From: Rotaria magnacalcarata
Taxonomy: Eukaryota
DNA length: 63,836 bases
Assembly (NCBI GenBank): GCA_965140935.1
Contig: CBCSLL010000228.1
Location: 14,084-77,919 of the forward strand
Reading direction: 5' to 3'
Shown: in pieces, positions 3,892 through 59,504 of the stretch
Layout: every line of letters starts with the position of its first letter
Numbering within the stretch: position 1 is the stretch's first letter
The notes under the pieces: model-generated
Databases searched by the model: none
What the model was told of the DNA's origin: nothing
Seen by the model: only the letters and a program-made list of their open reading frames with translations
Made by a program: the position numbers and the translations under genes

Positions 3892-5135
3892 AAGACATCA
3901 GACCAGCAACCGGTTAAAAAACCAGCTACTCAATCATCTTCTATTTCGATCACGCACAGTGAGATTGAGTGAGTGTAAAAGGTAACCTTTTCCTTTGGAG
4001 TTATTTTTTATTTCTTTCATTCTGTATTTGTTGCCTCTTCTTGATTTTCCTCTCCTATTCATAGTAAATGCAGTAATAGTTGAGAATCGTTCGATCTATA
4101 ATAAACTTTTCTAGGGTATGCAAAAAACATATAGAAGTTGCGCACGTGACAGTATTCATTCTACTGAAATTGATTGCATTTCATTCCATTGATTGTACTG
4201 ATTCGCTATTCGCTCCGTGTAAAAGAACAGGTAGAGAAGAGAACATTACAGACAAGATCACATAGTGTAGAACGTGAAAGAGACGATGTCAGATGAAGAA
4301 TATATGTCATTCACCTATAAACTAATCGATATAGGTTCTGTGAAAATTTTTACAATAGCGTATAATGTATTACAGCTTCTATTTATTTTTGTCTCGGAGG
4401 ATGTATCGAATCAAAATGAGCATTTAGAAAAATAATTTTAATTTATTTAAAAAAAAATCAATGCTACTTAATCAAACCCTAACCACGCGTTTGTGGACCG
4501 AATACACCATGCGAAAGCTAATCATCGATTTTTTCTTATAAAATATTTCTTTCAGTATTGCCTGGCTTTCGATTACAAGTTTTCGAAAATATCGGAATTA
4601 TCAGTCGAATTGCAAACCACAGTATTACAGTTAAGATCAGTTAATGTTAGACCGGAGGACATAGTCTACTGAATACAAATCGAAAATATTTGCTGGAGTT
4701 TAACTTCAAATTCAAACTATTTTCTCTTTCGATCTACGAAGAACATACATTTCGAACATGATAATATATTGTGATGTAAAAAAAATAATGCAAAAATGTT
4801 GCTCTCTAGCTCTAGCGTTAGAAGAATTTTTGCGCAGAGGTCCTGTTCATCGTGCTACTTTAAAGATTTCGAAAATTTATGATCGAAATAAGTACCATGA
4901 TAACTTAAGAAAGATGACACAAATAGAAGAGGTCGCTCGAATTTCTCGTTCAAATATTTTCTATTGGACTATAACACGACGTTAGACATCGTATGATAAT
5001 TGAAGACTTGACTGTGTACTATTATATAAGTTAAAGAATCGACAACTTATTAACCTGGTAGCACATACGATCAAGGTTTTTTATGCATTGAATCGATAAA
5101 TATTGAAATAATATGTCTCTTTTTTAGGCTGTACT

Positions 5136-15713: not shown

Positions 15714-16880
15714 TTATTTGTATTTAAATCCAAATGCAAATCCACTTGTAGTTAATATTGTACAAGGCGAATTGCGATCCATTAATTGAAATTGTTCACA
15801 ATTCGATGAGTGATTTGGATTCAATGAATCTTCATTATCGTAAAAACTTGAATGACGAAAGCAATGACAAATATTTATTTTTAATTTCATAAAAAGACGT
15901 TTCCATTCACGACGAAATTTTGAATCAAATAAAATATAAATATAAAAATTTATTGCGAATGATATTTGATATATTGAATGAAAATACTTTTCTAATAGAA
16001 GAATTAATTTTGTTTCAACTATTTTGTGTCCATATAGTAAACGCCATGTATGAATAGATGCATACGGGGCACATATTATTAAATATGATGTCGAAACAGC
16101 TAACAGTAATTTCGTCATTTTACGTGAAGCATTTCGACGTGTTATTTCACGAATTTTATTCAATTGAGAATGATTTCGAAAAAGAAATTCATGTGGACTT
16201 TGTTTCATTCGTCGTAAAGATATTAATATAATTGTATTCATTACTATGATCGAAATATACGGAATAAGAAACACAACAAAGCAATCCACTATATCCATTA
16301 ATTCATTTATCCAACGTAAATGTTTCAATGAAAAACATTGCCCATTAACAATACCGATAAGAAATGGTAAATATGAATAAATTAAACAAGCAATGAATAT
16401 TATGAATAAAGCTAAACATCGAGAACGATACCATGAAAGTACATGTGAAACACGAAATGGTTTTACAACAGCAAATAAACGTTGAGCTGTAAATGACACT
16501 GTATAATAGGCACTTATAAAATTACATACATATGTTAAATATAATGTTAATTGGCAAACTACTGGACGATGAAGGAGATTTATATAATTCGATACCCATA
16601 AACAAAATAAAACAAATAAATATATTGTATCCGAAATAGCCATATAAAAAAGAAATGGATACACGGACATATTCGAGCCCATGGATGCAATCGTCGTACG
16701 TAATGCTCGTTGACCAAAAACAATAATTGCAAAACCATTTCCAATGCATCCGATTAACACTAATAGTAACCAATAGATATGACGAAAGAAAAAATCCAAT
16801 AGAGTTATAGGTGATGGCAGTTCCGCCGTATCCAAACTACTATTTAAACTCGTCGATGTGATATTCTCTGCATCAATCAT
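15714..16880 (-). CDS. Intronless rhodopsin-like (class A) G-protein-coupled receptor, orphan; 388 aa
   Basis: This is a single uninterrupted 388-aa ORF with seven hydrophobic helices. The N-terminal ectodomain has N-glycosylation sites (NITS, NSS). The TM3 end reads 'SFTAQRLFAVV', an AQR variant of the D/ERY motif. TM7 reads 'AINFYIYILF', an NFxxY variant of NPxxY. It has a long basic third intracellular loop ('SLRRMKQSPHEF...RRNASRKMTK') and a cysteine-containing C-tail. Confidence 0.8.
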   Translation of the reverse strand: MIDAENITSTSLNSSLDTAELPSPITLLDFFFRHIYWLLLVLIGCIGNGFAIIVFGQRALRTTIASMGSNMSVYPFLFYMAISDTIYLFVLFCLWVSNYINLLHRPVVCQLTLYLTYVCNFISAYYTVSFTAQRLFAVVKPFRVSHVLSWYRSRCLALFIIFIACLIYSYLPFLIGIVNGQCFSLKHLRWINELMDIVDCFVVFLIPYISIIVMNTIILISLRRMKQSPHEFLFRNHSQLNKIREITRRNASRKMTKLLLAVSTSYLIICAPYASIHTWRLLYGHKIVETKLILLLEKYFHSIYQISFAINFYIYILFDSKFRREWKRLFMKLKINICHCFRHSSFYDNEDSLNPNHSSNCEQFQLMDRNSPCTILTTSGFAFGFKYK

Positions 16881-19695
16881 TATTCAAATCTAAAATATCA
16901 GTTTAATTCAAGATTTTTATAGTTTCTGAGTGTTTCTCGTAATGATGAATAATGGTTCGATAATTATCGAAAAGAAAATCTTTTTATATAACACTCATTA
17001 AATGTGAAATGACCCTCATAGGAAAATAATGGCGGAGTATACCTCGCTCTTCTGTTTTTACTTAAGTTTTCTGCTTCTTGTCTCTTATATTCACATTTCA
17101 GATAATGACAGTTGGACATTCAAGAGTACGATTAAACCCTAATAGATGCTAAATTGCTAGACAATATATCATATTCATATGCAAATACTGAACTAATCTA
17201 TTTACTGTCGTAGAATTTATATTAAACGAGATACCTCATGATTGGAATGCAAACAGAAAAGAATAGCAAGAGGCAAATTCTAAATATTTCTACTCAATAA
17301 TACAATAGTATATATCTATATATACGAAATAAACCTACTTCAATGCAACATAAGTCAATTATGATGTAAATAATCTTAATGAGGACGAAAAACACAAGTA
17401 GCACACGTTCTACATATGAGAGACTTCAATGTTGTATAAGTAAAATGTTGTCTATTAACTATCGAGGGGTTTTTATGTTATTAAAATTTATGTTTGTGTA
17501 GACTATTAACTTTTTTTCCTGCTGTAATTCCAACGTTAATGATACGCACGGAACAAAAACTATGCGAATATGATAAATAATTAGTCAAATCGTATGAATA
17601 GTTTTTTCCTAGGAGCGTTTTCCTTTTCCCTATGCTAATGATAAATGCTTGTAAAATAATTAACGATCAGTTCCTTCACGAAAAGTCAACATGATAATTA
17701 TGCAGCAAAAACAGATGAATATATGTCATGAACTAGAAACTTATTGCGAGATTGAAGACTCAATGTAACTGAGTGAGAAAATGTCTCATAGGAGTACTGC
17801 AACGATTGCAAAAGACAAGTGTTAACCCATTCGATTGTCAAATAACAACTAATTTATTTTCCATACTTGGAAGCAAGACAAATGCCTACCGTTTACGTGA
17901 CCTGATTGTTATCTATCGTTGGAGCTATTGAGTAGAAAAATAAAACAAAAATACTGATTAGTCTTATGACAACCAAAGAGAGGAGATGAAAGCGTAGGAT
18001 TAGATACTCAATTTCCATGATAATATGTTACTCGGCTAGTGTTAAGTAGTAAAACTAAAGCGAACTCTAGATGAAAACAAAACAAAGTGTTCCGCAACAA
18101 ATGCAAATAATTGTTTAAAGATATTTTATTATCATATATAATAAAAGTCAACTGTCGGGAATCTTAGTTCAACACTTGGCATATTAAAAAAATAGTCGAT
18201 AGAAAAGAATGCGAATCATCAGTTTAGAAAGAAACAAGAAGCAGACGACAGAACTGTCAGCAGTTACATCATATTGGTTTTGTATTTTCAACATTAAACA
18301 TATTCGATAAATATCAAATACTTAAAATTCTGTATTTCATCAAAAAGAAAAGGAAAAAATGTTGCTATTCAGATAAATACAAAAATGAACATTAGCATGC
18401 GTTTGTGGGCCTAAAACGACTGTTCTTATAGAGAAAAAGAGAATTTTTAATTTTAGCCTGCCAATTCGATTTTAACAGCATTATCACGTCTATTTAATGG
18501 ATAAAATAATAATTATCTTATGAATATTCTTTTATCTCAGTTGATCATAAAACAAAGAAAAACGATTTCGTTCAAATATTGCATGTATTTAGAACCGTAG
18601 AATTAAGTATGGAAAAAACCAGCGATAGCAATTTACGTTTTTCTCGGTGTTGAAGCATCAAATTATCTAGTTTGAATACGTATATATTTGAGTAAAGTTC
18701 TCATTATAAATGAAATAAAATATTCTAAGTCGCATATAAACGCAAAGTTTTTGGTTTTCTTCACGCCTACTATTAGTAAGCGCGGTACCAAAAATATGTA
18801 ATCATTGAACTCATATAAACTTTAATTGTGCTCTTTGACGTGTATGATGAACTTATTCTGATATTGAAAATTACTTTTATTAAAATCTAATCCTTTAAAA
18901 TGATAGCCATGCATTCAGTCATGATCACTTCTTGTTTTGTCTCCTTTCAATTGAACAATTGGCGAAGTTTCTTTTCTCTTGTAAAACACTACTATACCCA
19001 ATAATCAGGCAAGGAGTCCGTTTGATTCCAGTCTTTTTTTTTCTAAAGCTTCGATGATAAATGTATTATTTTACTTTTGAGAGAGTTTTCATTTTCTACT
19101 TTTAGGATTCATATCATATTTTTGCCGGTACAACCGAATTTGGATCCAATGTCTATCCTTTCTTTCTATTTAACAGACTATTAATCTGAATCAATGAACA
19201 TGATATATGGAAATGTCAGTCGAATTAATGGCTTGTAATTACTTTTTTTTATAACAGAAATCTTCCTCATTTACTCACGTGTTGCTCAATTTATAAGCTA
19301 ATTGACTTTTGAAAATAACGGTTTAGCAATAAAAAAAAAGTGCAACTTTATGACGATGATAATGGGTGTGATTTTTATTAATCAACAATAAGATAAGAAT
19401 GTACATTTTATTACGCTCAATCTAAAATAGAAGTAAGATTTCCCTATTTCGTACTTTTACTCCCGAGAAAATGCATTTTTACAAAAACAAGATAGCGCAA
19501 CGTTTCGATTGAAATTTAAAAACGGTCTGCTCTTTCTAATCGAATGATGCTCAGCTTCGAAAAATCTTTCGTTTTGTGGCAAAAATGAGTTATATTATTC
19601 TTTTTCATTAAAATGCGTTTTCGCAAGCGTAACTTGTGAAATACGTAGTAGACTATGACGTGTAAGAAAAATGTATGCTTGCTACTTGTGAGAAT

Positions 19696-21019
19696 AATGA
19701 GTCTTATTCACACTTTACTTGTTGGCCACGAACATGTTTAAAACTGGCCCCCCAAATAAATTTTTGTTGCTAAGAGCGGTTTATTTCCTTTTACCTATCT
19801 TTGACAATCGTCTTCCTTGCTTAGAGCATGTCCTCTTTGGTGTCACCCCGATTCGTCCCTTTTAATTTTTTCTTAACTCGTCCCATTCCGAATTTGTACC
19901 TATCTCAATTCGTCCCATACTTAATTGGTATCTAATTTTTCGGAATGTCATGATTATGCCCATCTATTGAATGCTAAATATATACTAATTACGATACCTT
20001 ATGTCTCGTTGGCCTTCCGAAGTACGAAAAAAACTTAGAAAATAGCGTGCACAAAGAAAATTGCTTTTATTTCTCTAGTAAACCAAATAACTACCATGCT
20101 TAAGTTCACATATAGCGAACGTTCAAAGCTTGTGTTGAACTTTAAAGGACATCAATATACCAAAAACCGGGAAGATAAAACTGGTCAAGAAAAAGAACAA
20201 TAAAGAGAGTAATAGCTTTAATGTAATCTTATTTTTCTTTGATAATAAATAGTTCTTTCTCTATAGGGTATTATATTAATTTACAGACAATCAGGGACGA
20301 GTTAAGAAAAATTTAAAACGGACGAATTGGGTATGGGACCAATCAGGGGCGAATCGGGGCTAAACCGTCCACTTTTCGCCTTTCCTCTTTCTCCTCTCCT
20401 TAATTGCGTTATCTCTTTGAAGTTGTCTTTTTCTTTTCTTTTTCGTCAAGACATGATCAACATCGGAAAGATACAAAAGTTATGTTTTTGCTTATTTTTC
20501 TAATCATTACAACTATCAACCATAAAAAGATTTGGATAATTTTTGTCATACGAACTTTTCGCTTAAAACTAAATTCTTCTGATAAATTACGACTGTTTTT
20601 TTTTAATTTTCACATCACTCCTGCTGTTATTATTCAAGTATTAACATATATGAAATAGGTGTTTTATGAACTAGAAATTAATTGTAACAAATTTAGTTGT
20701 AGTCTATATAAATACATCGTAATCCTTTTATCGTTGATAGTTGTAATGAATAGAATAATAAGCACGAACATAACTTTCGTATCTTTCCAATGTTAATCAT
20801 TTCTTGACGAAAAAGAAAGGAAGAAGACAACTTCAAAGAGATAACGCAATTAAGGAGAGGAGAAAGAGGAAAGGCGAAAAGTGGACATGCTCTAAGGAAG
20901 GAAGACGATTGTCAGAGATAGATAAAAGGAAATAAACCGCTCTTAGCAACAAAAATTTATTTGGGGGTCAGCTTTATACATGTTCGCGGTCAACAAGCAA
21001 AGTGTGAATAAGGCTCATT
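19696..21019. repeat. Complex nested inverted-repeat (foldback-like) structure, approx 1.3 kb: outer arms A 19696-19834 / A' 20881-21019; inner pair B 19845-19930 / B' 20281-20362; pair C 20360-20450 / C' 20800-20885
   Basis: A 'AATGAGTCTTATTCACACTTTACTTGTTGGCCACGAACATGTTTAAAACTGGCCCCCCAAATAAATTTTTGTTGCTAAGAGCGGTTTATTTCCTTTTACCTATCTTTGACAATCGTCTTCCTTGCTTAGAGCATGTCC' is the reverse complement of A' (approx 90% identity). C 'CACTTTTCGCCTTTCCTCTTTCTCCTCTCCTTAATTGCGTTATCTCTTTGAAGTTGTC...CGTCAAG' is the reverse complement of C' 'CTTGACGAAAAAGAAAGGAAGAAGACAACTTCAAAGAGATAACGCAATTAAGGAGAGG...GAAAAGTG'. B/B' share 'CCCCGATTCGTCCC...TTTTAATTTTTCTTAACTCGTCCC'. Confidence 0.8.
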
Positions 21020-21896
21020 CAAATTTTCAGTCGCACAAGTAGTAAAGGTAAAGAAAGAATAATCGTCTAATTATATAATCCAGAGTGTAATAAAAAATGC
21101 AACCTATTATTGTCCACCAGAGCAGAAAGTCTCTATACCAATTACAATATCCTTAGAAATTCTTTTACGAACTTCACGTTTGAGTACCCTTAGGATTTCC
21201 ATCCGAACTACTGACGGTGTTTATTACGATCTGCATGTGTTACGTTAAATATAGCAAAAATGCTCTATTCCGAACATCCGGTAAACACATTACGATCTTC
21301 CTGCTGTCTGTTGCGATCTCCGACACATAGATGTTTACGAACTCCTGTCATAAATTTTTACGAATAAAATTCATTTCCGAACATCCGGCAACGTTTACTG
21401 GTGTTCGGAAGAGATGAGACGAAACGTAAGTCACCCGAAAAAATAGGCAATTTACTTTGACAGCAGCATCAAAGTTTCTCAACTTAACCACACGAACGGA
21501 AAAAATGATTTTTGACCTCGAATAATAGGGCTGAATACACTAAAAGCGCAAGTATCTATATATATATATTAATGAGAGATCATTATTTTGCATCATACAA
21601 GAAAAGCAATTCAGTAGAATTCTTGCAACAATGTCTATTCAATACGTTAATAGATCATAGGAGCTGGAGCTTTTTCTGTCTGCACGAGACAAATTTCATC
21701 AAGTTTTTAACTGTAATTACAGTAAAAGTGAATAGTTACTTACTCTTATTAGTCTGGGAAATCTTGAGAAAAACAGCTACCGCATGTGTTAGATTTGAGA
21801 ATTCGGTCACAATGATCTTTTCAACATTCAAAGATGGTCATAGAAAAAGTGCATCAGCAAAAGGCATAACGTATTTTAGACGGAAATAGTGATATA

Positions 21897-23000
21897 TATA
21901 TATATATCAGAGACCGAAATCGAATCGAATCGAATGAATAAAAAAAAATGAAAAAAAGCCTAATCGAATCAATTCATTTTTCTTTCAGTTTCATTCGGCT
22001 ATTCAAAATCATTTTCTTTGTTCTGGTGTTATGGTCGAGGGTAGTTGACTAGTACACAAGAGATGACGAATGAAAAACGACGTCCACTGTTTCTCTTCCT
22101 TTGTTTCTGTCAGTCGTGCTTATTCAATAGTCATCCTTGTTCTGTTCATATCTTGAAGGTGTGGGTGTGAATTAAGGCATGTGATTGGTGTATTAAGAGG
22201 TAAGTAATCTTTTGGAGGTGATTTAACTCTTAATGTATCAATTAGATTGCTTAATACGACTTTAACTTTATTCACATTTCCAGTGCGATTGGGTTCTTGA
22301 TATCAGCCTCTTCATTTATTAAGCATGGGTACGGTCAACTGTAAATATAGATCCATATACAGTAAATAACATTATTTTTCTTCGTTCTATACAAAATAAA
22401 CTTATTTACTTACTCTACTTAGATGTGTTCATTAATTTATATTTTATGTATTCTTTCTTGAAAAAAATGAATAACCCAGGTCGACTGATCCGATAGGAAC
22501 CTGGAAATATCCTACACTCCGATACAATTCTATTGGATTCCAGGTCGAGGAATCAATGTCGGATCCTCAGTGTCGGAATCCTATGAACTTCCGATGACAT
22601 CCAACGGTTTTTCGTTGGAATTCATAGGAATCCGACACTGAGGATCCGACATCGATTCCTCGACCCGGAATCCAACGATAATTCTGTAAGATCTGACAGG
22701 ATCCGATAAAATCGTATTGGATTCCAGTCGGATCGGATGGGTTCCGATAGGTGCCTACTGGCGGATTGCTCGACCTGGGAATTCTTATGTAATTATATAT
22801 TCATAAATTATATTTATTCAACATATTATCTATAGAAGATCGACAGACTATTCTCATTCTAAGAAGATGAGAGTCTGAAAACAACAGTACCATGTTTTGT
22901 AAACCCAATTTGAGTCGAATCCGGATCCCGGTCCTGAAAACCCGAATCGAACCGAATGGCACTTTTGTCGTTCGTTTCGGTCTCTGACTCTGATATATAT
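21897..23000. mobile_element. Non-autonomous DNA-transposon-like element (MITE-like, approx 1.1 kb) with terminal inverted repeats, inserted between (TA)n tracts
   Basis: Left end 'TATATATCAGAGACCGAAATCGAATCGAATCGAATG' (21893-21930). Right end 'CATTCGGTTCGATTCGGG...TTTCGGTCTCTGACTCTGATATATATA' (approx 22935-23000). The two ends are imperfect reverse complements (core CAGAGACCGAAA / TTTCGGTCTCTG). (TA)n flanks both ends. The interior has no ORF and contains a 45-bp-arm perfect palindrome at 22543-22665. Confidence 0.55.
22543..22665. repeat. Near-perfect palindrome (45-bp arms, approx 33-bp loop) inside the MITE-like element
   Basis: 'GGTCGAGGAATCAATGTCGGATCCTCAGTGTCGGAATCCTATGAA' (22543-22587) is reverse-complementary to 'TTCATAGGAATCCGACACTGAGGATCCGACATCGATTCCTCGACC' (22621-22665), with a single mismatch. 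Confidence 0.85.
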
Positions 23001-23127
23001 ATGTTGCAGGGCAGATTGAAATTCAGTTCAGATTAAAATAACTTCGATTTCAACAAAGAAAAATTTTAAACTGAACTAGTTCAGATCAAAATTATTTTAA
23101 TCTGCACTGGATTTTAATCTATCCTAC

Positions 23128-23165
<38 letters not shown>
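23000..23165. repeat. (AT)n microsatellite (approx 23128-23162) preceded by a short inverted repeat 'CAGATTAAAATAA...TTATTTTAATCTG'
   Basis: Approx 17 AT dinucleotide units at 23128-23162. Arms of the inverted repeat are at approx 23021-23036 and 23090-23105. Confidence 0.8.
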
Positions 23166-30361: not shown

Positions 30362-33300
30362 ATGACTGATTCGAAAACTACCGGTGGTAAGCTGCATGAT
30401 GAATATGTTGTTCTTCTAAATATCGATGATGGTACTCTATTTAGTATACCGAATTCCTCCTTTCTACTATTTGCATGTTCTCGATCAGAACACAAATGTA
30501 ACTCGACTTGAAGTAGGTCCTAAAACTTTTGTTAAACAAGATCATGAAAAAGTTTTACTGGGACCTGAAGGCATGTTAATTATTCCGTATGTTTAATTAT
30601 TGTTTGTTTTTTCGCGAGATAAAATATGTTTTCGTTCATAGTCCACGTCATTATGCTGTTATTGATAATCCAGCAGTTCGAGATAAAGATGGTCAAGTTG
30701 TTATAGATGCTAATGGTCAAGTTAAATTATTGCATTCCGATGTTGATATTCGTTTTGCACAAGAACCATTTCCACTTTATCCTGGAGAAACTCTCAAACA
30801 AAATGTTACGCCATTGAAAGTTATTGAACCTAATTGCGCACTACGTCTTCGTACTGTTCTTGACTTCACCAATGATCACGGTGAACTAGTCCGAGCTGGG
30901 GATGAATTTCTTTTCCAGGGACCTGGTATGAAACCATAAGATTTTAGCGGATAAATAGAAAAATTTTTATGTTTTGATGTTTAGGCACTTATTTTCCACG
31001 TAAGGAAGTTAGCGTAGAAGAACAAATTAAAGCTGTTATTCTTAAGCCAAATGAAGCTGTTCGTTTACGTGCTAAGAAAGAAATGATAGATCGAAGTGGT
31101 GTAGAACGAGAAACCGGTGAAGAATGGCTTAATCGAACCGTCGGTTCATATTTACCATTAGCCTATGAAGAAGTTGTCTCGGTTGTCAAAGCCTATGTAC
31201 TTACTGATAAAGTACGATGTTGTGATTCTGTAAAGCATCCTTAATATCCTATTATATGCATATTTTGTTTTCAGAAAGCTCTTCATGTTCGTGCTTTACG
31301 TACGTTCACTGATTTATTCAAGCGTAAGCGTCTTCATGGTGAAGAATGGTTAGTCTATGCAAGTGATAGTGAAACCTATATTCCTGATGTTTACGAAGAA
31401 GTATGTTATCTTGTGTTTTCTTCGATGCAAAGAAAATATCCTTTTTTCTAGGTTGTTGGCGTTGTATCAGTGACAGTATTGAACTCTCGTCAATATTGTG
31501 TTATTGTGGATCCAGTTGATGCCGATGGTAAACTTCAACTTGGAAGAAAAAAACTAATTAAAGTACGAGAAAAATAATTGCATTTATCAAATATAAATAA
31601 TTATTTAACATTTTTCTATTTTTCAGGGTGAAAAAACATTCTTTCTTCAACCTGGTGAAAAATTAGCAAATGGTATTCAAGATGTTTACGTACTTGAAGA
31701 AGACGAAGGTCTTATTCTTCGTTGTACTGAGTCGTTTAAAGAAGACGAAGTAAGTTTGTGCTTTTGTTTATGGTTAATAGAAAATAACGACGATCTCTAT
31801 CAATAGAAAGTCTTACGAAACCCTGGTGATCGTTGGATGGTTCGCGGACCTAAAGATTATATACCGGCTGTTGAAGCCGACGTTGTACTTCGACGTAAAG
31901 CAATTCCATTGGATATTAACGAAGGAATCTATGTTCGTGATGTTAAAAGTGGTAAAGTTCGTGCCGTCATTGGCACAACATATCTGTTAACTGAAAATGA
32001 GGAACTTTGGGAGAAAGATTTGCCAGCACAAGTCGAACAATTACTTGTTTTAGATGCTCGACACTTCGAAGATAAATCAGGTACACCAGCTGCTATTCCA
32101 CCAAGAAATAAATCAAAAGTTGTTAGCTATCGCGTACCGCACAATGCTGCTGTACAAATTTATGACTTTAAATCTAAGAAGGCCCGCATTGTCTTTGGCC
32201 CTGAACTTGTTATTCTTGGCCCTGATGAACAATTTACAATTTTGAATTTATCCGGTGAAAAACCCAAAGTACCAAACAAAATTCGAGCAATCTGCCTTCT
32301 ATTGGGACCAGAATTCTCAAGTGATATTGTTACAATTGAATCAAGTGATCATGCTCGTCTTTCACTTAGACTTTCATACAATTGGCATTTTGAAGTAAGA
32401 ACCATTGAGGTCTTTTTCATTAAAAAGTAAACTGTTTTATGTCCAGGTCAGTGATCGTGAAGATAGCAAAGAAGTTGCGAAACTCTTTTCGGTTCCAGAT
32501 TTCGTTGGAGACTTTTGCAAGGCTGTTGCGGCGAAGATTCGTGGTGCCGTTGCTGGTATTTCATTTGATGATTTTCATAAGAATTCAGCAAAAATTATTC
32601 GTGCTTCTGTCTTTGGTCTTGATGAAAACAAACGAGTTAACAAACGTCTCGTATTTCCACAAAATAACTTGATTTTAACTTCGATCGATATTCAAAGTGT
32701 CGAGCCTGTCGATCAACGAACACGTGATGCACTTCAAAAGAGTGTTCAATTAGCTATTGAGGTAAGATCAGCGTAATTGACATCATTCATTTCAATGAAT
32801 TTTGTTTTGTTAGATTACAACAAATTCTCAAGAAGCTCAAGCAAAGTAAAAATCATTGATGAATTCAAATTGAATGTTCGCAATATTTCTCTTCATAGAC
32901 ATACGGCATCTCGTACAGAACAAGAAGCGAAAGGTCATTTAGAGAGACAGAAGATTGCTGATGAAGCTGAAGGTAAAAAAAAGAATTGATTAATACTTTT
33001 GTAAACAAAGATTTTCATACGTTTTGTTTTTGTTTGTAGCCGAAAAAGAACGTCGAAAACTATTACAACTACAAGCTGAATCATCAGCCGTTGAATCAAC
33101 TGGTCAAGCTAAAGCTGAAGCTCAATCACGAGCAGAAGCTGCTAAAATTGAGGGTTCAGCTGCTGTTGATCAAGGTAAATACTCTTGTCTAGATATGATT
33201 CTAGATTTCATCACATAGATATCTTTTATTTTAGCTAAACTTCGTGCCGAAGCAACAAAAATTGAATCCGATAGTGAACTTCAACGTTTAACACAAGCAC

Positions 33301-34557: not shown

Positions 34558-37500
34558 CTATTCATGTTCTTCGACATGATAATTGCTCGAAGTTGCAGTT
34601 GATGTACGAGGTTTTTGATTCATATTTCCGGTCATACCGCCTAGAAGACCTTGTCCGAATCCCATAAGATTGATTGGTGAACGGCCATCGGTAACCAACA
34701 TTGATTGAAGACCAAGTGCTTGTAAAAGTTTAACTTGTGTATCTGGACCAGACGTCGCAATAGCTTGTATGGTTGATGCACCAATCGCTTCAACTTGTAA
34801 TTTGAATTTATCGGTTTCAATTCTTGACATTTCAGCTTTTTTCGTGATTTCTAATTCATTTTGTTCACGTAAATATTTGATTTCAGCTTCGCGTGCTAAT
34901 TTCAAACGTTCTAATTCAGCCTCAGCTTCAATACGTGTCGCATCGGCTTTGAGACGAGCTAATCGAAAGAAAGAAAAAGAAAAAGTTTATTATTTAAACA
35001 CTTCGATTTTATTTTTACCTTGTTCAACGGCAGCTTTGCCTTCAATGAGAGCTGATTCAGCTCGACTTTGTGCTTCAGCTTTAGCGTGACCACTGACTTC
35101 AACAGCAGCTGATTCAGCTTGCAATTCAAGAAGTTGTCGTCGAACTTCCTCAGCTTCGGCTTCATCTTTTATGCGTTGGCGTTCGAGTAAACCTTTGGCT
35201 TCTTGTTCTCGACGTGAAGCTTCATGTTTAGCTGCAGCCTCTTGTGAATTTGTTGTAATCTAAGAAGCCAAAAAATTCATTGATACGGATGAAATCAATT
35301 ACATGTATCTTACTTCAATAGCCAATTGAACACTCTTCTGAAGTGCATCACGTGTTCGTTGATCAACAGGTTCGACACTTTGAATATCAATCGACGTAAT
35401 AACGAGATTATTTTGCGGGAAAACGAATTCATCTCGTACACGTTGATTCGAATCAAGACCAAATACAGCTGCACGAATAATATGAGCTGAATTCTTATGA
35501 AAATCATCGAATTGAGTTCCAGCAACAGCACCGCGAATACGCGATGCAATAGCTTTAGCTGCATCACCAACAAAATCGGGTACTGAAAAAAGTTTAGCAG
35601 CTTCTTTTTCGTCTTTAGTGTCGTTAACGTCGAAATGCCAATCTAAAGAAAAAATAGAGAGTTCAAAAAACATTTTCCTTTTTGAAATTTATCAATTTAC
35701 TGTAAGATAATTGAAGTGAAAGGCGAGCATGATCAGCTGTTTCAATAACAATAACATCGGTAAAGAAATCAGGACCAAGAAGTAAACAGAGTGATTGAAT
35801 TTGGTTCGCTTTTTTTGGCACAGAACCACTCAATGAAAGTAATGTAAAATGTTCTTCTGGGCCAAGCATAACAAGTTCAGGGCCAAAGATAATGCGTGCT
35901 TTTTTAGCCTTATAATCATAAATCTGTACAGCGGCATTGTGTGGCACGCGATACGCAACTAATTTCGATTTATCACGTTGAGTTGCGCTTGATTTTGCAC
36001 TTGCTTGCGTTGTCGTAGTTGCTTGCTGTTGAGCTTTATCTGCGCCTTGATTACGTGTTGGAACATTTCGTTCGGCTAGCGGATCACGAGAAAGTAACTC
36101 TTCAACTTGTTTAGGCAATTCTTTTTGCCAAAGTTCTTCATTTTGTGTGAGCATATAAGTTTCACCAACAACAGCTCGTACACGACCGGTTTTGATATCA
36201 CGAACATAGATACCTTCGTTTTCATCTAAAGGCATTGCTTTACGACGTGTAACAACTTCAACTTGTGTTGGAGGAATATATTCGCTATAGCGAGAAAAAA
36301 ATTAAAATTTTCAAACTAAAACTCAATGAATCGGTTTCTTACTTTGGCCCACGAATCATCCATCTGTCGCCGGGATTTCTTTCAACATGTGCTTGTTCAT
36401 CGGTAAATGCTTCGATACATTTAAGAATAACACCTTCATCTTCACCCAATATATACACATCTTGAATACCATTTTCAAGCGTCTCACCGGGTTGAAGAAA
36501 GAATGATTTTTCGCCAACAATAAGTTTCTATTAGAAACAAGAAATGATAACTTAGACAAAAATAATACTAGCACAAACCTTTTTTCCTAATTGCGGTTTT
36601 CCGTCTTCAACTGGATCAAGAACAACGCAATATTGTCGTGAGTTAAGTGTTATTACACCAACTACGGCCACTAACTGTTCATAAACATTGAGTGTATGAG
36701 TTTCAGTATCTTTGAGAGTTACAAGCCATTCTTCTCCATTCATACGATTTTTACCAAAATCATCCGTAAATGTTTTCAGAGCACGAAGATGTAATGCTTT
36801 TTTATCTGTTAATACATGAGCACTTTCGACCGACACAACAGTTTCCTAGATTATGGAAATAATAGTTAGGAGAAGAATTTTCAAACGTAATTTCCCTTAC
36901 ATAGGCAAGTGGTAGATAAGCACCGGTTTTTTTTATTAACCATTCTTCGCCGGTGACACGTCGTTGACCTGTTCGATCGATGATTTCTTTTTTAGCACAC
37001 AAGCGAATAGCTTGATTCGAGCTAATGACCGTGGCACGAATTTGTTCTTCTACGCTAACTTCTTTTCGTGGAATGTAAGTGCCTGGTCCTTCAAATAGCC
37101 ATTCGTCACCAGCACGACGCTGTTCTTTTGCTGTATCATCGTCGAAGTCGAGTACAGCCTTTAAGCGTAAAGCTGAATTAGCTGGTACGACTTTAAGTGG
37201 AGTAACTGGCTATCAAAGACTAGATTGTAAAAATGAAAAGTAATAATATAAATTTTTCTACCTGACGAAGAACTTCGCCTGGATAAAGTGGAAATGGTGA
37301 TTGATCAGTTTGTGCAAGACGAATATCCAAATCAGCATGAACAAGTTTAGCTTGGCCATTGGCATCGAATTGAACTTGTCCTTCGACATTGCGTATGACA
37401 GGCGATTCAACGACACAATAGTGACGTGGCCTAAATATTATTTTTATTTTTACTTTGTTGTTTTTCGAATTAATTTACGTACGGTACTGTAATCATTTTT

Positions 37501-59017: not shown

Positions 59018-59504
59018 TCATTTGCGTTTTTCTTCCTTGCTTTTCCGACGCTGCAATGGCGAATCTACTCTTCGAGCTTCAAAAACACGTTGTTGTTGTA
59101 ATGGCCAATACTGTTGATAACCAGAAACATTTTGACCTAAATACGATTGAGGCCAAAGCGAAGCTTGTTGCTGTTGCGGATAATACGAAAGCTGCTGCTG
59201 ATAAAATGGATATTGTGCTACTTGTTGCGGATAGTAGCTCTGCTGAGGGTAGTAGCTTTGTTGAGGATAGGAATATTGTTGCGGATAGTAGCTTTGCTGA
59301 GGATAGGGATACTGTTGCGGTTGGTAGTATTGTTGTGGATATGATGCACCATATCCTGGATATTGCTGTGGTAGAGCAGCATTTGAAAAAGCATTAAAAC
59401 TGCCTGTGCAAGGTGCACATTGTTGACACTTAAAAAAACGAAGTTCAATTGTTAGTTTATTTTATAAAAGGAAAAACTCTCACTTGTTGTGGAACGGCTT
59501 GCAT
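59018..59504 (-). CDS. Small Gln/Tyr/Pro-rich tandem-repeat protein (approx 144 aa), 2 exons: 59484-59504 and 59018-59428 (minus strand)
   Basis: Minus-strand model: ATG at 59504, 21-nt exon 'MQAVPQQ', GTGAGA donor, 55-bp intron ending ...TTTAAG, then the second exon. It translates to 'CQQCAPCTGSFNAFSNAALPQQYPGYGASYPQQYYQPQQYPYPQQSYYPQQYSYPQQSYYPQQSYYPQQVAQYPFYQQQLSYYPQQQQASLWPQSYLGQNVSGYQQYWPLQQQRVFEARRVDSPLQRRKSKEEKRK*' (stop TGA 59018-59020). There are TATA-like elements (59596-59607) upstream and ATTAAA/AATAAA signals downstream at approx 58905-58925. No homolog recognised, so this rests on gene structure only. Confidence 0.45.

Follow-up and report, generated by a model that had tools for sequence, protein, structure and literature searches.

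A nest of three small non-coding DNA transposons, the largest probably hAT-like, in an intergenic region of the bdelloid Rotaria magnacalcarata

Three transposons at one intergenic site

Where the initial annotation had placed a single MITE-like element, our analysis found three small non-coding cut-and-paste transposons in a TA-rich intergenic spot of the Rotaria magnacalcarata genome, a case of ordinary genome parasitism. That annotation had correctly recognized an inserted, non-coding DNA element bounded by terminal inverted repeats (TIRs), and the corresponding site in Rotaria socialis is empty; it is the notion of one element that has to be given up, with A, B, and C being separate. We consider it reasonably probable that the region holds three unrelated DNA transposons, all non-autonomous, in a nest in which element A would belong to a family with 8-bp target site duplications (TSDs), most likely hAT, element B would be nested within A, and element C would be a later neighbour.

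Locus and samples compared

The window, by which we mean the whole 63.8-kb stretch of R. magnacalcarata DNA analysed here, is eukaryotic, has ~33% GC, and is rich in genes. From left to right, the region of interest consists of a (TA)8 run (21892-21907), element A (21908-22992, plus strand) with element B inside it (22475-22779), a (TA)5 run (22993-23002), element C (23003-23130), and a (TA)16 run (23131-23163). The length of the last run varies among assemblies and is 20 nt shorter in one of them (contig L004). The transposon nest is intergenic, situated ~1.3 kb beyond the 3' end of a sulfite-oxidase gene (which ends at ~24252 of the window according to the gene tables) and ~5 kb upstream of a GPCR gene with a single-exon ORF on the minus strand (15714-16880, start codon at 16880).

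An identical GPCR ORF is present in GCA_905261645.1, GCA_905273325.1, and GCA_905319835.1, as well as in two newer assemblies and one Logan run. The first three accessions are the R. magnacalcarata assemblies MAG1, MAG2, and MAG3 of Nowell et al. 2021 (PMC7943196). For comparison with the sister species, six R. socialis loci were obtained via the GPCR orthologue P0001 (92% identity). The contigs named individually below are L001 (GCA_965120335.2), L003 (MAG2), L004 (MAG1), L005 (MAG3), and L010 (R. socialis).

Several other repeated structures were observed in the window. A 1.3-kb foldback-like element (element D, 19694-21019) has TIRs of ~143 bp (19696-19838 and 20878-21019) that are 92% identical, together with a further 534-nt internal inverted repeat (79%). 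Element D is missing from R. socialis, where ~856 bp of unrelated DNA is found close by instead (L010:5790-6645). Further along the window, the major vault protein gene occurs as two diverged copies arranged head-to-head in an inverted duplication (31837-32776, plus strand; 35299-36235, minus strand), with short inverted matches between 32.8-33.2 kb and 35.0-35.3 kb. An 18-bp tandem repeat of ~7 units (GTTGCGGATAGTAGCTYT-like, 59222-59347) lies inside a 128-aa ORF.

Empty sites in the sister species

All six R. socialis loci align to positions 26869-23159 of the window and then resume directly at 21898-21033. The TA runs, element A with element B, and element C are missing from them as one block, and the motif CATATAA replaces the whole of it (the R. 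socialis junction reads ...GACGGAAATAGTGACATATAAGTCAAAGAGCGG..., and the empty site ...AGTGACATATAAGTC...). TA repeats aside, the two copies of A's TIR lie at the two edges of this missing block. The R. magnacalcarata loci that span the site all carry A and B, nearly unchanged. Overall, empty sites with boundaries at element termini were found for A and C (in R. socialis), for C (in L001), and for a further element, E, which is described below (in R. magnacalcarata).

These patterns can be read in either of two ways, i.e., A, B, and C may be lineage-specific insertions that followed the split between R. magnacalcarata and R. socialis, or the block may have been lost from R. socialis. Under the first of these, A would have entered a short TA-rich site, seen as CATATAA in the sister species, after the split.

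The ends and interior of element A

Element A measures 1079 bp to an inner CTCTG motif and 1085 bp to an outer one, or ~775 bp when B is subtracted. Its left TIR, CAGAGACCGAAA (21908-21919, plus strand), has an exact inverted copy, TTTCGGTCTCTG, at 22975-22986 (minus strand), which is its perfect reverse complement. The pair is perfect over 12 bp, or over 13 bp when T21907 and A22987 are counted. The earlier description of the termini as reverse complements holds over these 12-13 bp; the length of ~30 bp given for the TIR was overstated, because the CGAATCGAA-type repeats that adjoin it (21921-21936 and 22943-22958) are on the same strand and are thus direct, not inverted. The form CGATTCGGG, as quoted in that description, is the minus-strand reading.

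Inverted pairs of 12-13-mers at a spacing of 100-2500 bp are common in this AT-rich window (~45 isolated pairs, vs. ~31 expected from shuffles), and A's TIR, taken alone, is no better than chance. What makes it significant is its position, one copy standing at each edge of the block that is absent from R. socialis; judged from this comparison of sequences, the TIR is credible.

The right end of A is slightly irregular. The motif ACTCTG (22987-22992) follows the right TIR as a near-duplicate of the terminus and is the same in all R. magnacalcarata loci, with CTCTGA standing twice in tandem (22982-22987 and 22988-22993). This extra ACTCTG could have arisen by slippage duplication, or it could mark the real outer end of the element. 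Were the outer CTCTG the true terminus, ATATATAT would directly adjoin it and would form a perfect 8-bp TSD with the last 8 bp of the left (TA)8 run, which are likewise ATATATAT and are a candidate TSD (R. socialis has CATATAA at this point). A's own TSD is nonetheless illegible, with a TA microsatellite on both flanks and a left-hand ATATATAT that has its counterpart on the right only when A is taken to end at the outer CTCTG.

Inside the TIRs, four copies of a (T)CGAAT repeat were counted in the left subterminal region (21920-21969, plus strand) and three copies of CGAAT in the right one (22915-22957, plus strand), the latter being direct relative to the left-end copies. Seven of the eight CGAAT motifs in A are found within 60 bp of an end (<=60 bp), all on the same strand, and the mean for the window is 1.6 per kb. 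The longest ORF in A is 53 aa and a Pfam search of A's ORFs gave no match, in agreement with the initial annotation, which had assigned it no coding capacity.

A relative in R. socialis and the superfamily of element A

The superfamily of A is best approached through element E, a 555-bp non-coding element that was found in R. socialis only (L010:8277-8831) and has an empty site at ~18040 of the window. Its TIRs, CATAGTCCGAAA and CATAGACTGAAA, are each 10/12 identical to the TIR of A; the fraction of window 12-mers that match so well is 4.7e-5. The similarity is also end-specific (A-left vs. E-right, 19/25; A-right vs. E-left, 19/25), and the right subterminal region of A can be aligned with the left end of E over 44 nt with gaps, at a score reached in 0/300 shuffles. 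Based on the TIR identity and the end-specific matches, A and E are evidently relatives in opposite orientation, a kinship that rests on ~25-45 nt per end, with no detectable similarity between the interiors of the two elements.

Element E is flanked by CTTCACAC and CTTCGCAC, and the uninterrupted R. magnacalcarata site has a single CTTAACAC. The 8-bp TSD of E is therefore clean and unambiguous, with no TA at either junction.

The terminus of A, CAGAG, fits the hAT terminal motif (YARNG) and resembles the ends of hobo and Hermes; the terminus of E, CATAG, departs from YARNG at the third base. Both CTTAACAC and ATATATAT fit nTnnnnAn, the target consensus of Ac-type elements. Short subterminal repeats are a layout typical of hAT ends. 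In published descriptions, hAT elements have TIRs of 10-25 bp and TSDs of 8 bp (PMC3942097), and the perfect 12-13-bp TIR of A, starting with CAGAG, lies within this range. Considering the 8-bp TSD of E together with the short TIR, the CAGAG terminus, the target sites, and the subterminal CGAAT repeats, A is probably a non-autonomous hAT-like (class II) element that is mobilised in trans. It would be a deletion-derivative or a MITE-like member of an 8-bp-TSD family, without a transposase of its own, and its cut-and-paste movement would depend on a transposase made elsewhere, with the TIRs of 12-13 bp (CAGAGACCGAAA) and the (T)CGAAT repeats just inside both ends as its binding sites.

It is unlikely, though worth some weight, that A and E are not hAT elements and come from one of the other superfamilies that make TSDs of 7-9 bp (P, Merlin, or Mutator-like), with the same non-autonomous cut-and-paste mechanism. 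TSDs of 8 bp also occur outside hAT, the P superfamily making TSDs of 7-8 bp, and both CAGAG and CATAG fit CANRG, a terminal motif attributed to P elements. It also counts in favour of such an assignment that a tblastn search with the hATC consensus against the window and the Rotaria loci found no hAT transposase. However, the TIRs of Merlin and Mutator elements are usually longer and have a different start, and a 12-13-bp TIR, CAGAG, subterminal repeats, and nTnnnnAn sites make up the classic hAT combination. We thus retain the hAT-like reading of A as the probable one.

Each of the two sister species has gained a member of one end-family (A in R. magnacalcarata, E in R. socialis), at points ~4 kb from each other within a single intergenic region. 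This proximity could be a coincidence, or the region could be a permissive one.

Element C and the TA tract

Element C is a 128-bp, AT-rich, non-coding MITE (23003-23130) bounded by TIRs of ~40 bp (GTTGCAGGGCAGATT... and GTCGTAGGATAGATT...) and embedded in (TA)n; in size, ends, and lack of coding sequence it agrees fully with the MITE class. It is precisely missing from L001, whose TA run continues unbroken for ~15 units, and it is missing from the R. socialis loci too. Being present in the window and precisely missing from L001, C is polymorphic within R. magnacalcarata, which could reflect either a recent insertion or a deletion via the flanking TA repeats. Its features fit a Tc1/mariner-type MITE, with a TSD that is illegible inside (TA)n. 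In the order of events that we envisage, C would have inserted after A, into the (TA)n next to it.

A (TA)n run is found at every R. magnacalcarata junction, with a length that varies by assembly, and the sister species has only CATATAA. The TA microsatellite may have grown from TA-rich TSDs, or it may be older than the insertions and have attracted them. The MAG3 contig (L005) parts from the locus inside the TA tract that follows C and is without the sulfite-oxidase gene; the GPCR side is joined there to other sequence, either by a mis-join or by a real rearrangement. This contig contains a Tc1-like transposon (L005:1751-3706) with a TIR beginning TACAGTGGCTACC..., a TA TSD, and a called transposase of 276 aa. 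A 262-bp MITE, which has a TA TSD and the termini CCCAGG...CCTGGG, interrupts the left TIR of this transposon.

On account of its TA flanks, the region had been attributed to one Tc1/mariner-type MITE that targets TA and has the palindrome as its own centre. TA repeats do flank A on both sides, as (TA)8 on the left and (TA)5 on the right; Tc1-like transposases are present in the species, with a Tc1-like element just past the same TA tract in L005; and TA also flanks both C and the small element that lies inside the Tc1 copy of L005. We nevertheless regard this attribution as highly improbable. The bracketing by (TA)n is interrupted at the right end of A, where ACTCTG precedes any TA, and a (TA)n microsatellite fits a TA duplication and an 8-bp ATATATAT duplication equally well. 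The Tc1/mariner reading of A fails on this non-TA right junction and on the TA-free 8-bp TSD of its relative E. In addition, A and the Tc1 element of L005 have unrelated TIRs (that of the latter being TACAGTGGCTACC...), and the palindrome is located in a separate element with its own termini, to which we now turn.

Element B, a palindrome nested in element A

Element B is a 305-bp palindromic MITE (22475-22779), TIR-bounded, non-coding, and well within the size range of the class. It has termini of its own, CCCAGGTCGA...TCGACCTGGG, with AA on each flank (AA|...|AA), and the CCAGGTCGAGG/CCGGGTCGAGG motif of these termini is present again inside B. The inner arms of the palindrome (22533-22587, plus strand; 22621-22675, minus strand) are 55 nt long and complementary at 52/55 positions, i.e., with 3 mismatches. 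The central palindrome of the initial annotation is thus real, and it is less than the perfect 45-bp structure first described: two mismatches fall within its 45-nt core, and no perfect run is longer than 22 bp. Nor is it the centre of the larger element, as it belongs to the nested B, whose separate termini and likely second copy set it apart; the two long inverted-repeat arms of B are its sole source, with none contributed by A. When folded as DNA, B forms a single long hairpin (-92.9 kcal/mol, z = -13.4), and the central palindrome folded as RNA reaches -108 kcal/mol (z = -14.8).

Further support for B as a unit comes from contig L003, which agrees with the window as far as 22779, where B ends, and from there runs into unrelated DNA. 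L003 has five differences from the window, all of them in the right arm of B, and there are only two in the adjoining 567 bp of A. An exit exactly at 22779, with all five SNPs in the right arm, points to a further copy of B in the genome, ~96% identical, that was presumably reached by an assembler switch in L003. This second copy is flanked by GA.

In L004 (~4197-4236), the B palindrome has an N and a 40-bp duplicated stretch placed exactly at its loop and arm. These are an assembly artefact caused by the hairpin and, like the exit of L005 at the TA tract, do not speak for recombination in the rotifer itself, for which the initial annotation had suggested a possible hotspot here. Between them, the palindrome of B and the TA tract disrupt the draft assemblies MAG1, MAG2, and MAG3.

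Two other interpretations of B were rejected. A piggyBac origin, prompted by the CCC...GGG termini, does not agree with the flanks, which are not TTAA. An inner copy of B nested in an outer one is at odds with the DNA beside the inner motif, which continues the palindrome and is without direct duplications.

It seems very unlikely to us that the palindrome is under selection as a gene for a hairpin RNA, such as the precursor of a miRNA or endo-siRNA, beyond serving as the arms of a MITE. Its predicted RNA fold is very stable, and one study of bdelloid genomes describes an expanded RNAi machinery and piRNAs that target transposons in Adineta vaga (PMC7943196), both of which would be in favour of such a role. 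However, a search of Rfam gave no family at the gathering score (e.g., 37.7 bits vs. a threshold of 139.7 bits), and the sub-threshold hairpin-like matches are nearly all over element C or a TA run, with one weak match overlapping B. Moreover, the hairpin is bounded by transposon-type termini and has an indicated second genomic copy, and it is not conserved, since it is missing from the sister species. We therefore continue to treat B as a palindromic MITE.

Copy number and search for partners

A second copy of A was found neither in the 63.8-kb window nor in ~340 kb of Rotaria loci, and C is present once in the same DNA. We also sampled R. magnacalcarata through its Tc1-like transposases, each of which mapped to a single locus repeated across isolates, with ~three new loci gained; no copies of A, B, C, D, or E were detected in these ~three further loci. 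Beyond Rotaria, the 21-nt core of B had 0 matches in prokaryote genomes, and nine ORF variants from A and B were absent from a collection of 15 billion proteins. The 20-nt left end of A matched two JGI metagenome contigs (GC 42% and 56%) that share the 20 nt only, and we rejected these matches as chance. A very low copy number of A would be unsurprising, since bdelloid class II elements are reported to be mostly low-copy (PMC7943196).

It is barely credible that A is not mobile at all, being a chance 13-bp inverted repeat in an ancestral block that was deleted in R. socialis between TA repeats: inverted 12-13-mer pairs at such a spacing are common by chance, A is single-copy in all DNA searched, and the TA repeats could mediate a deletion, but both TIR copies stand exactly at the block edges, the ends of A are homologous to those of E (which was independently inserted with a TSD), the subterminal motifs are clustered at both ends of A, and R. 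socialis has only CATATAA left, with no TA tract.

Comparison with known transposon systems

The closest likeness of A is to hAT-derived MITEs of Drosophila (Mar and BuT2-derived elements; PMC3517528, PMC3942097). Shared features are the 12-13-bp TIRs, the CAGAG terminus, the non-coding interior, a length of several hundred bp to ~1 kb, a position near genes, short repeats under both ends, and an 8-bp TSD, the last being seen in the relative E. In contrast to those elements, A has a TSD masked by the TA microsatellite, a 6-bp duplication at the right end, and neither an autonomous partner nor a further copy among the loci searched. Its size of 1.08 kb (~775 bp without B) is at the upper limit for MITEs and, with the class taken as under about 800 bp, A is borderline at 1079-1085 bp and falls within it only when B is left out.

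Element C (128 bp, AT-rich, almost all TIR, and lying between TA repeats) resembles Stowaway-like Tc1/mariner MITEs. The CCCAGGT terminus of B also recalls mariner TIRs (e.g., CCAGGTG, that of Mos1), but B differs from the Stowaway-like elements in its flanks, which are AA|AA (GA in the second copy) and not TA. A differs from them in having a relative with an 8-bp TSD and a right junction that is non-TA. With foldback-like or palindromic MITEs, B and D share a build made up almost entirely of long imperfect inverted arms that form a single hairpin. This likeness is structural only; unlike foldback elements, B and D were seen without subrepeat arrays, a 9-bp TSD, or a coding partner.

The pattern observed here is the same as that of low-copy bdelloid class II transposons (Arkhipova and Meselson 2000, cited in PMC7943196; Nowell et al. 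2021). In the latter study, the insertion-polymorphism analysis of bdelloids concerns LTR retrotransposons, and MITEs are counted in bulk only (PMC7943196); the particular small elements of this locus do not appear to be described there.

Implications for bdelloid transposons

A more speculative idea, to which we give a small chance, is that the TA-rich site, expanded to a variable (TA)n, serves as a landing site used in common by DNA transposons of unrelated families, and that the hairpin of B, if transcribed, feeds RNAi as a source of hairpin-siRNAs. The idea draws on the three insertions in 1.3 kb, on element D ~0.9 kb away, and on the Tc1-like element that one assembly has at this tract. 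If true, this would be taking place in an anciently asexual animal, with C still segregating between clonal lineages.

The main value of our results is a correct annotation, in which a supposed single Tc1/mariner MITE is replaced by three elements, the largest of them probably hAT-derived. These are ordinary elements of known kinds, and the current understanding of bdelloid transposons is unchanged by them. The locus is mildly interesting for its clean presence-absence differences between and within species of an asexual lineage, and because unrelated insertions are gathered at a single TA tract. It also provides small, clean examples of DNA-transposon gain in bdelloids: A-D occur in R. magnacalcarata only and E in R. 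socialis only, and C varies within R. magnacalcarata. In the published view, bdelloid transposons remain active despite asexuality (PMC7943196), and the presence and absence of elements A-E agree with this.
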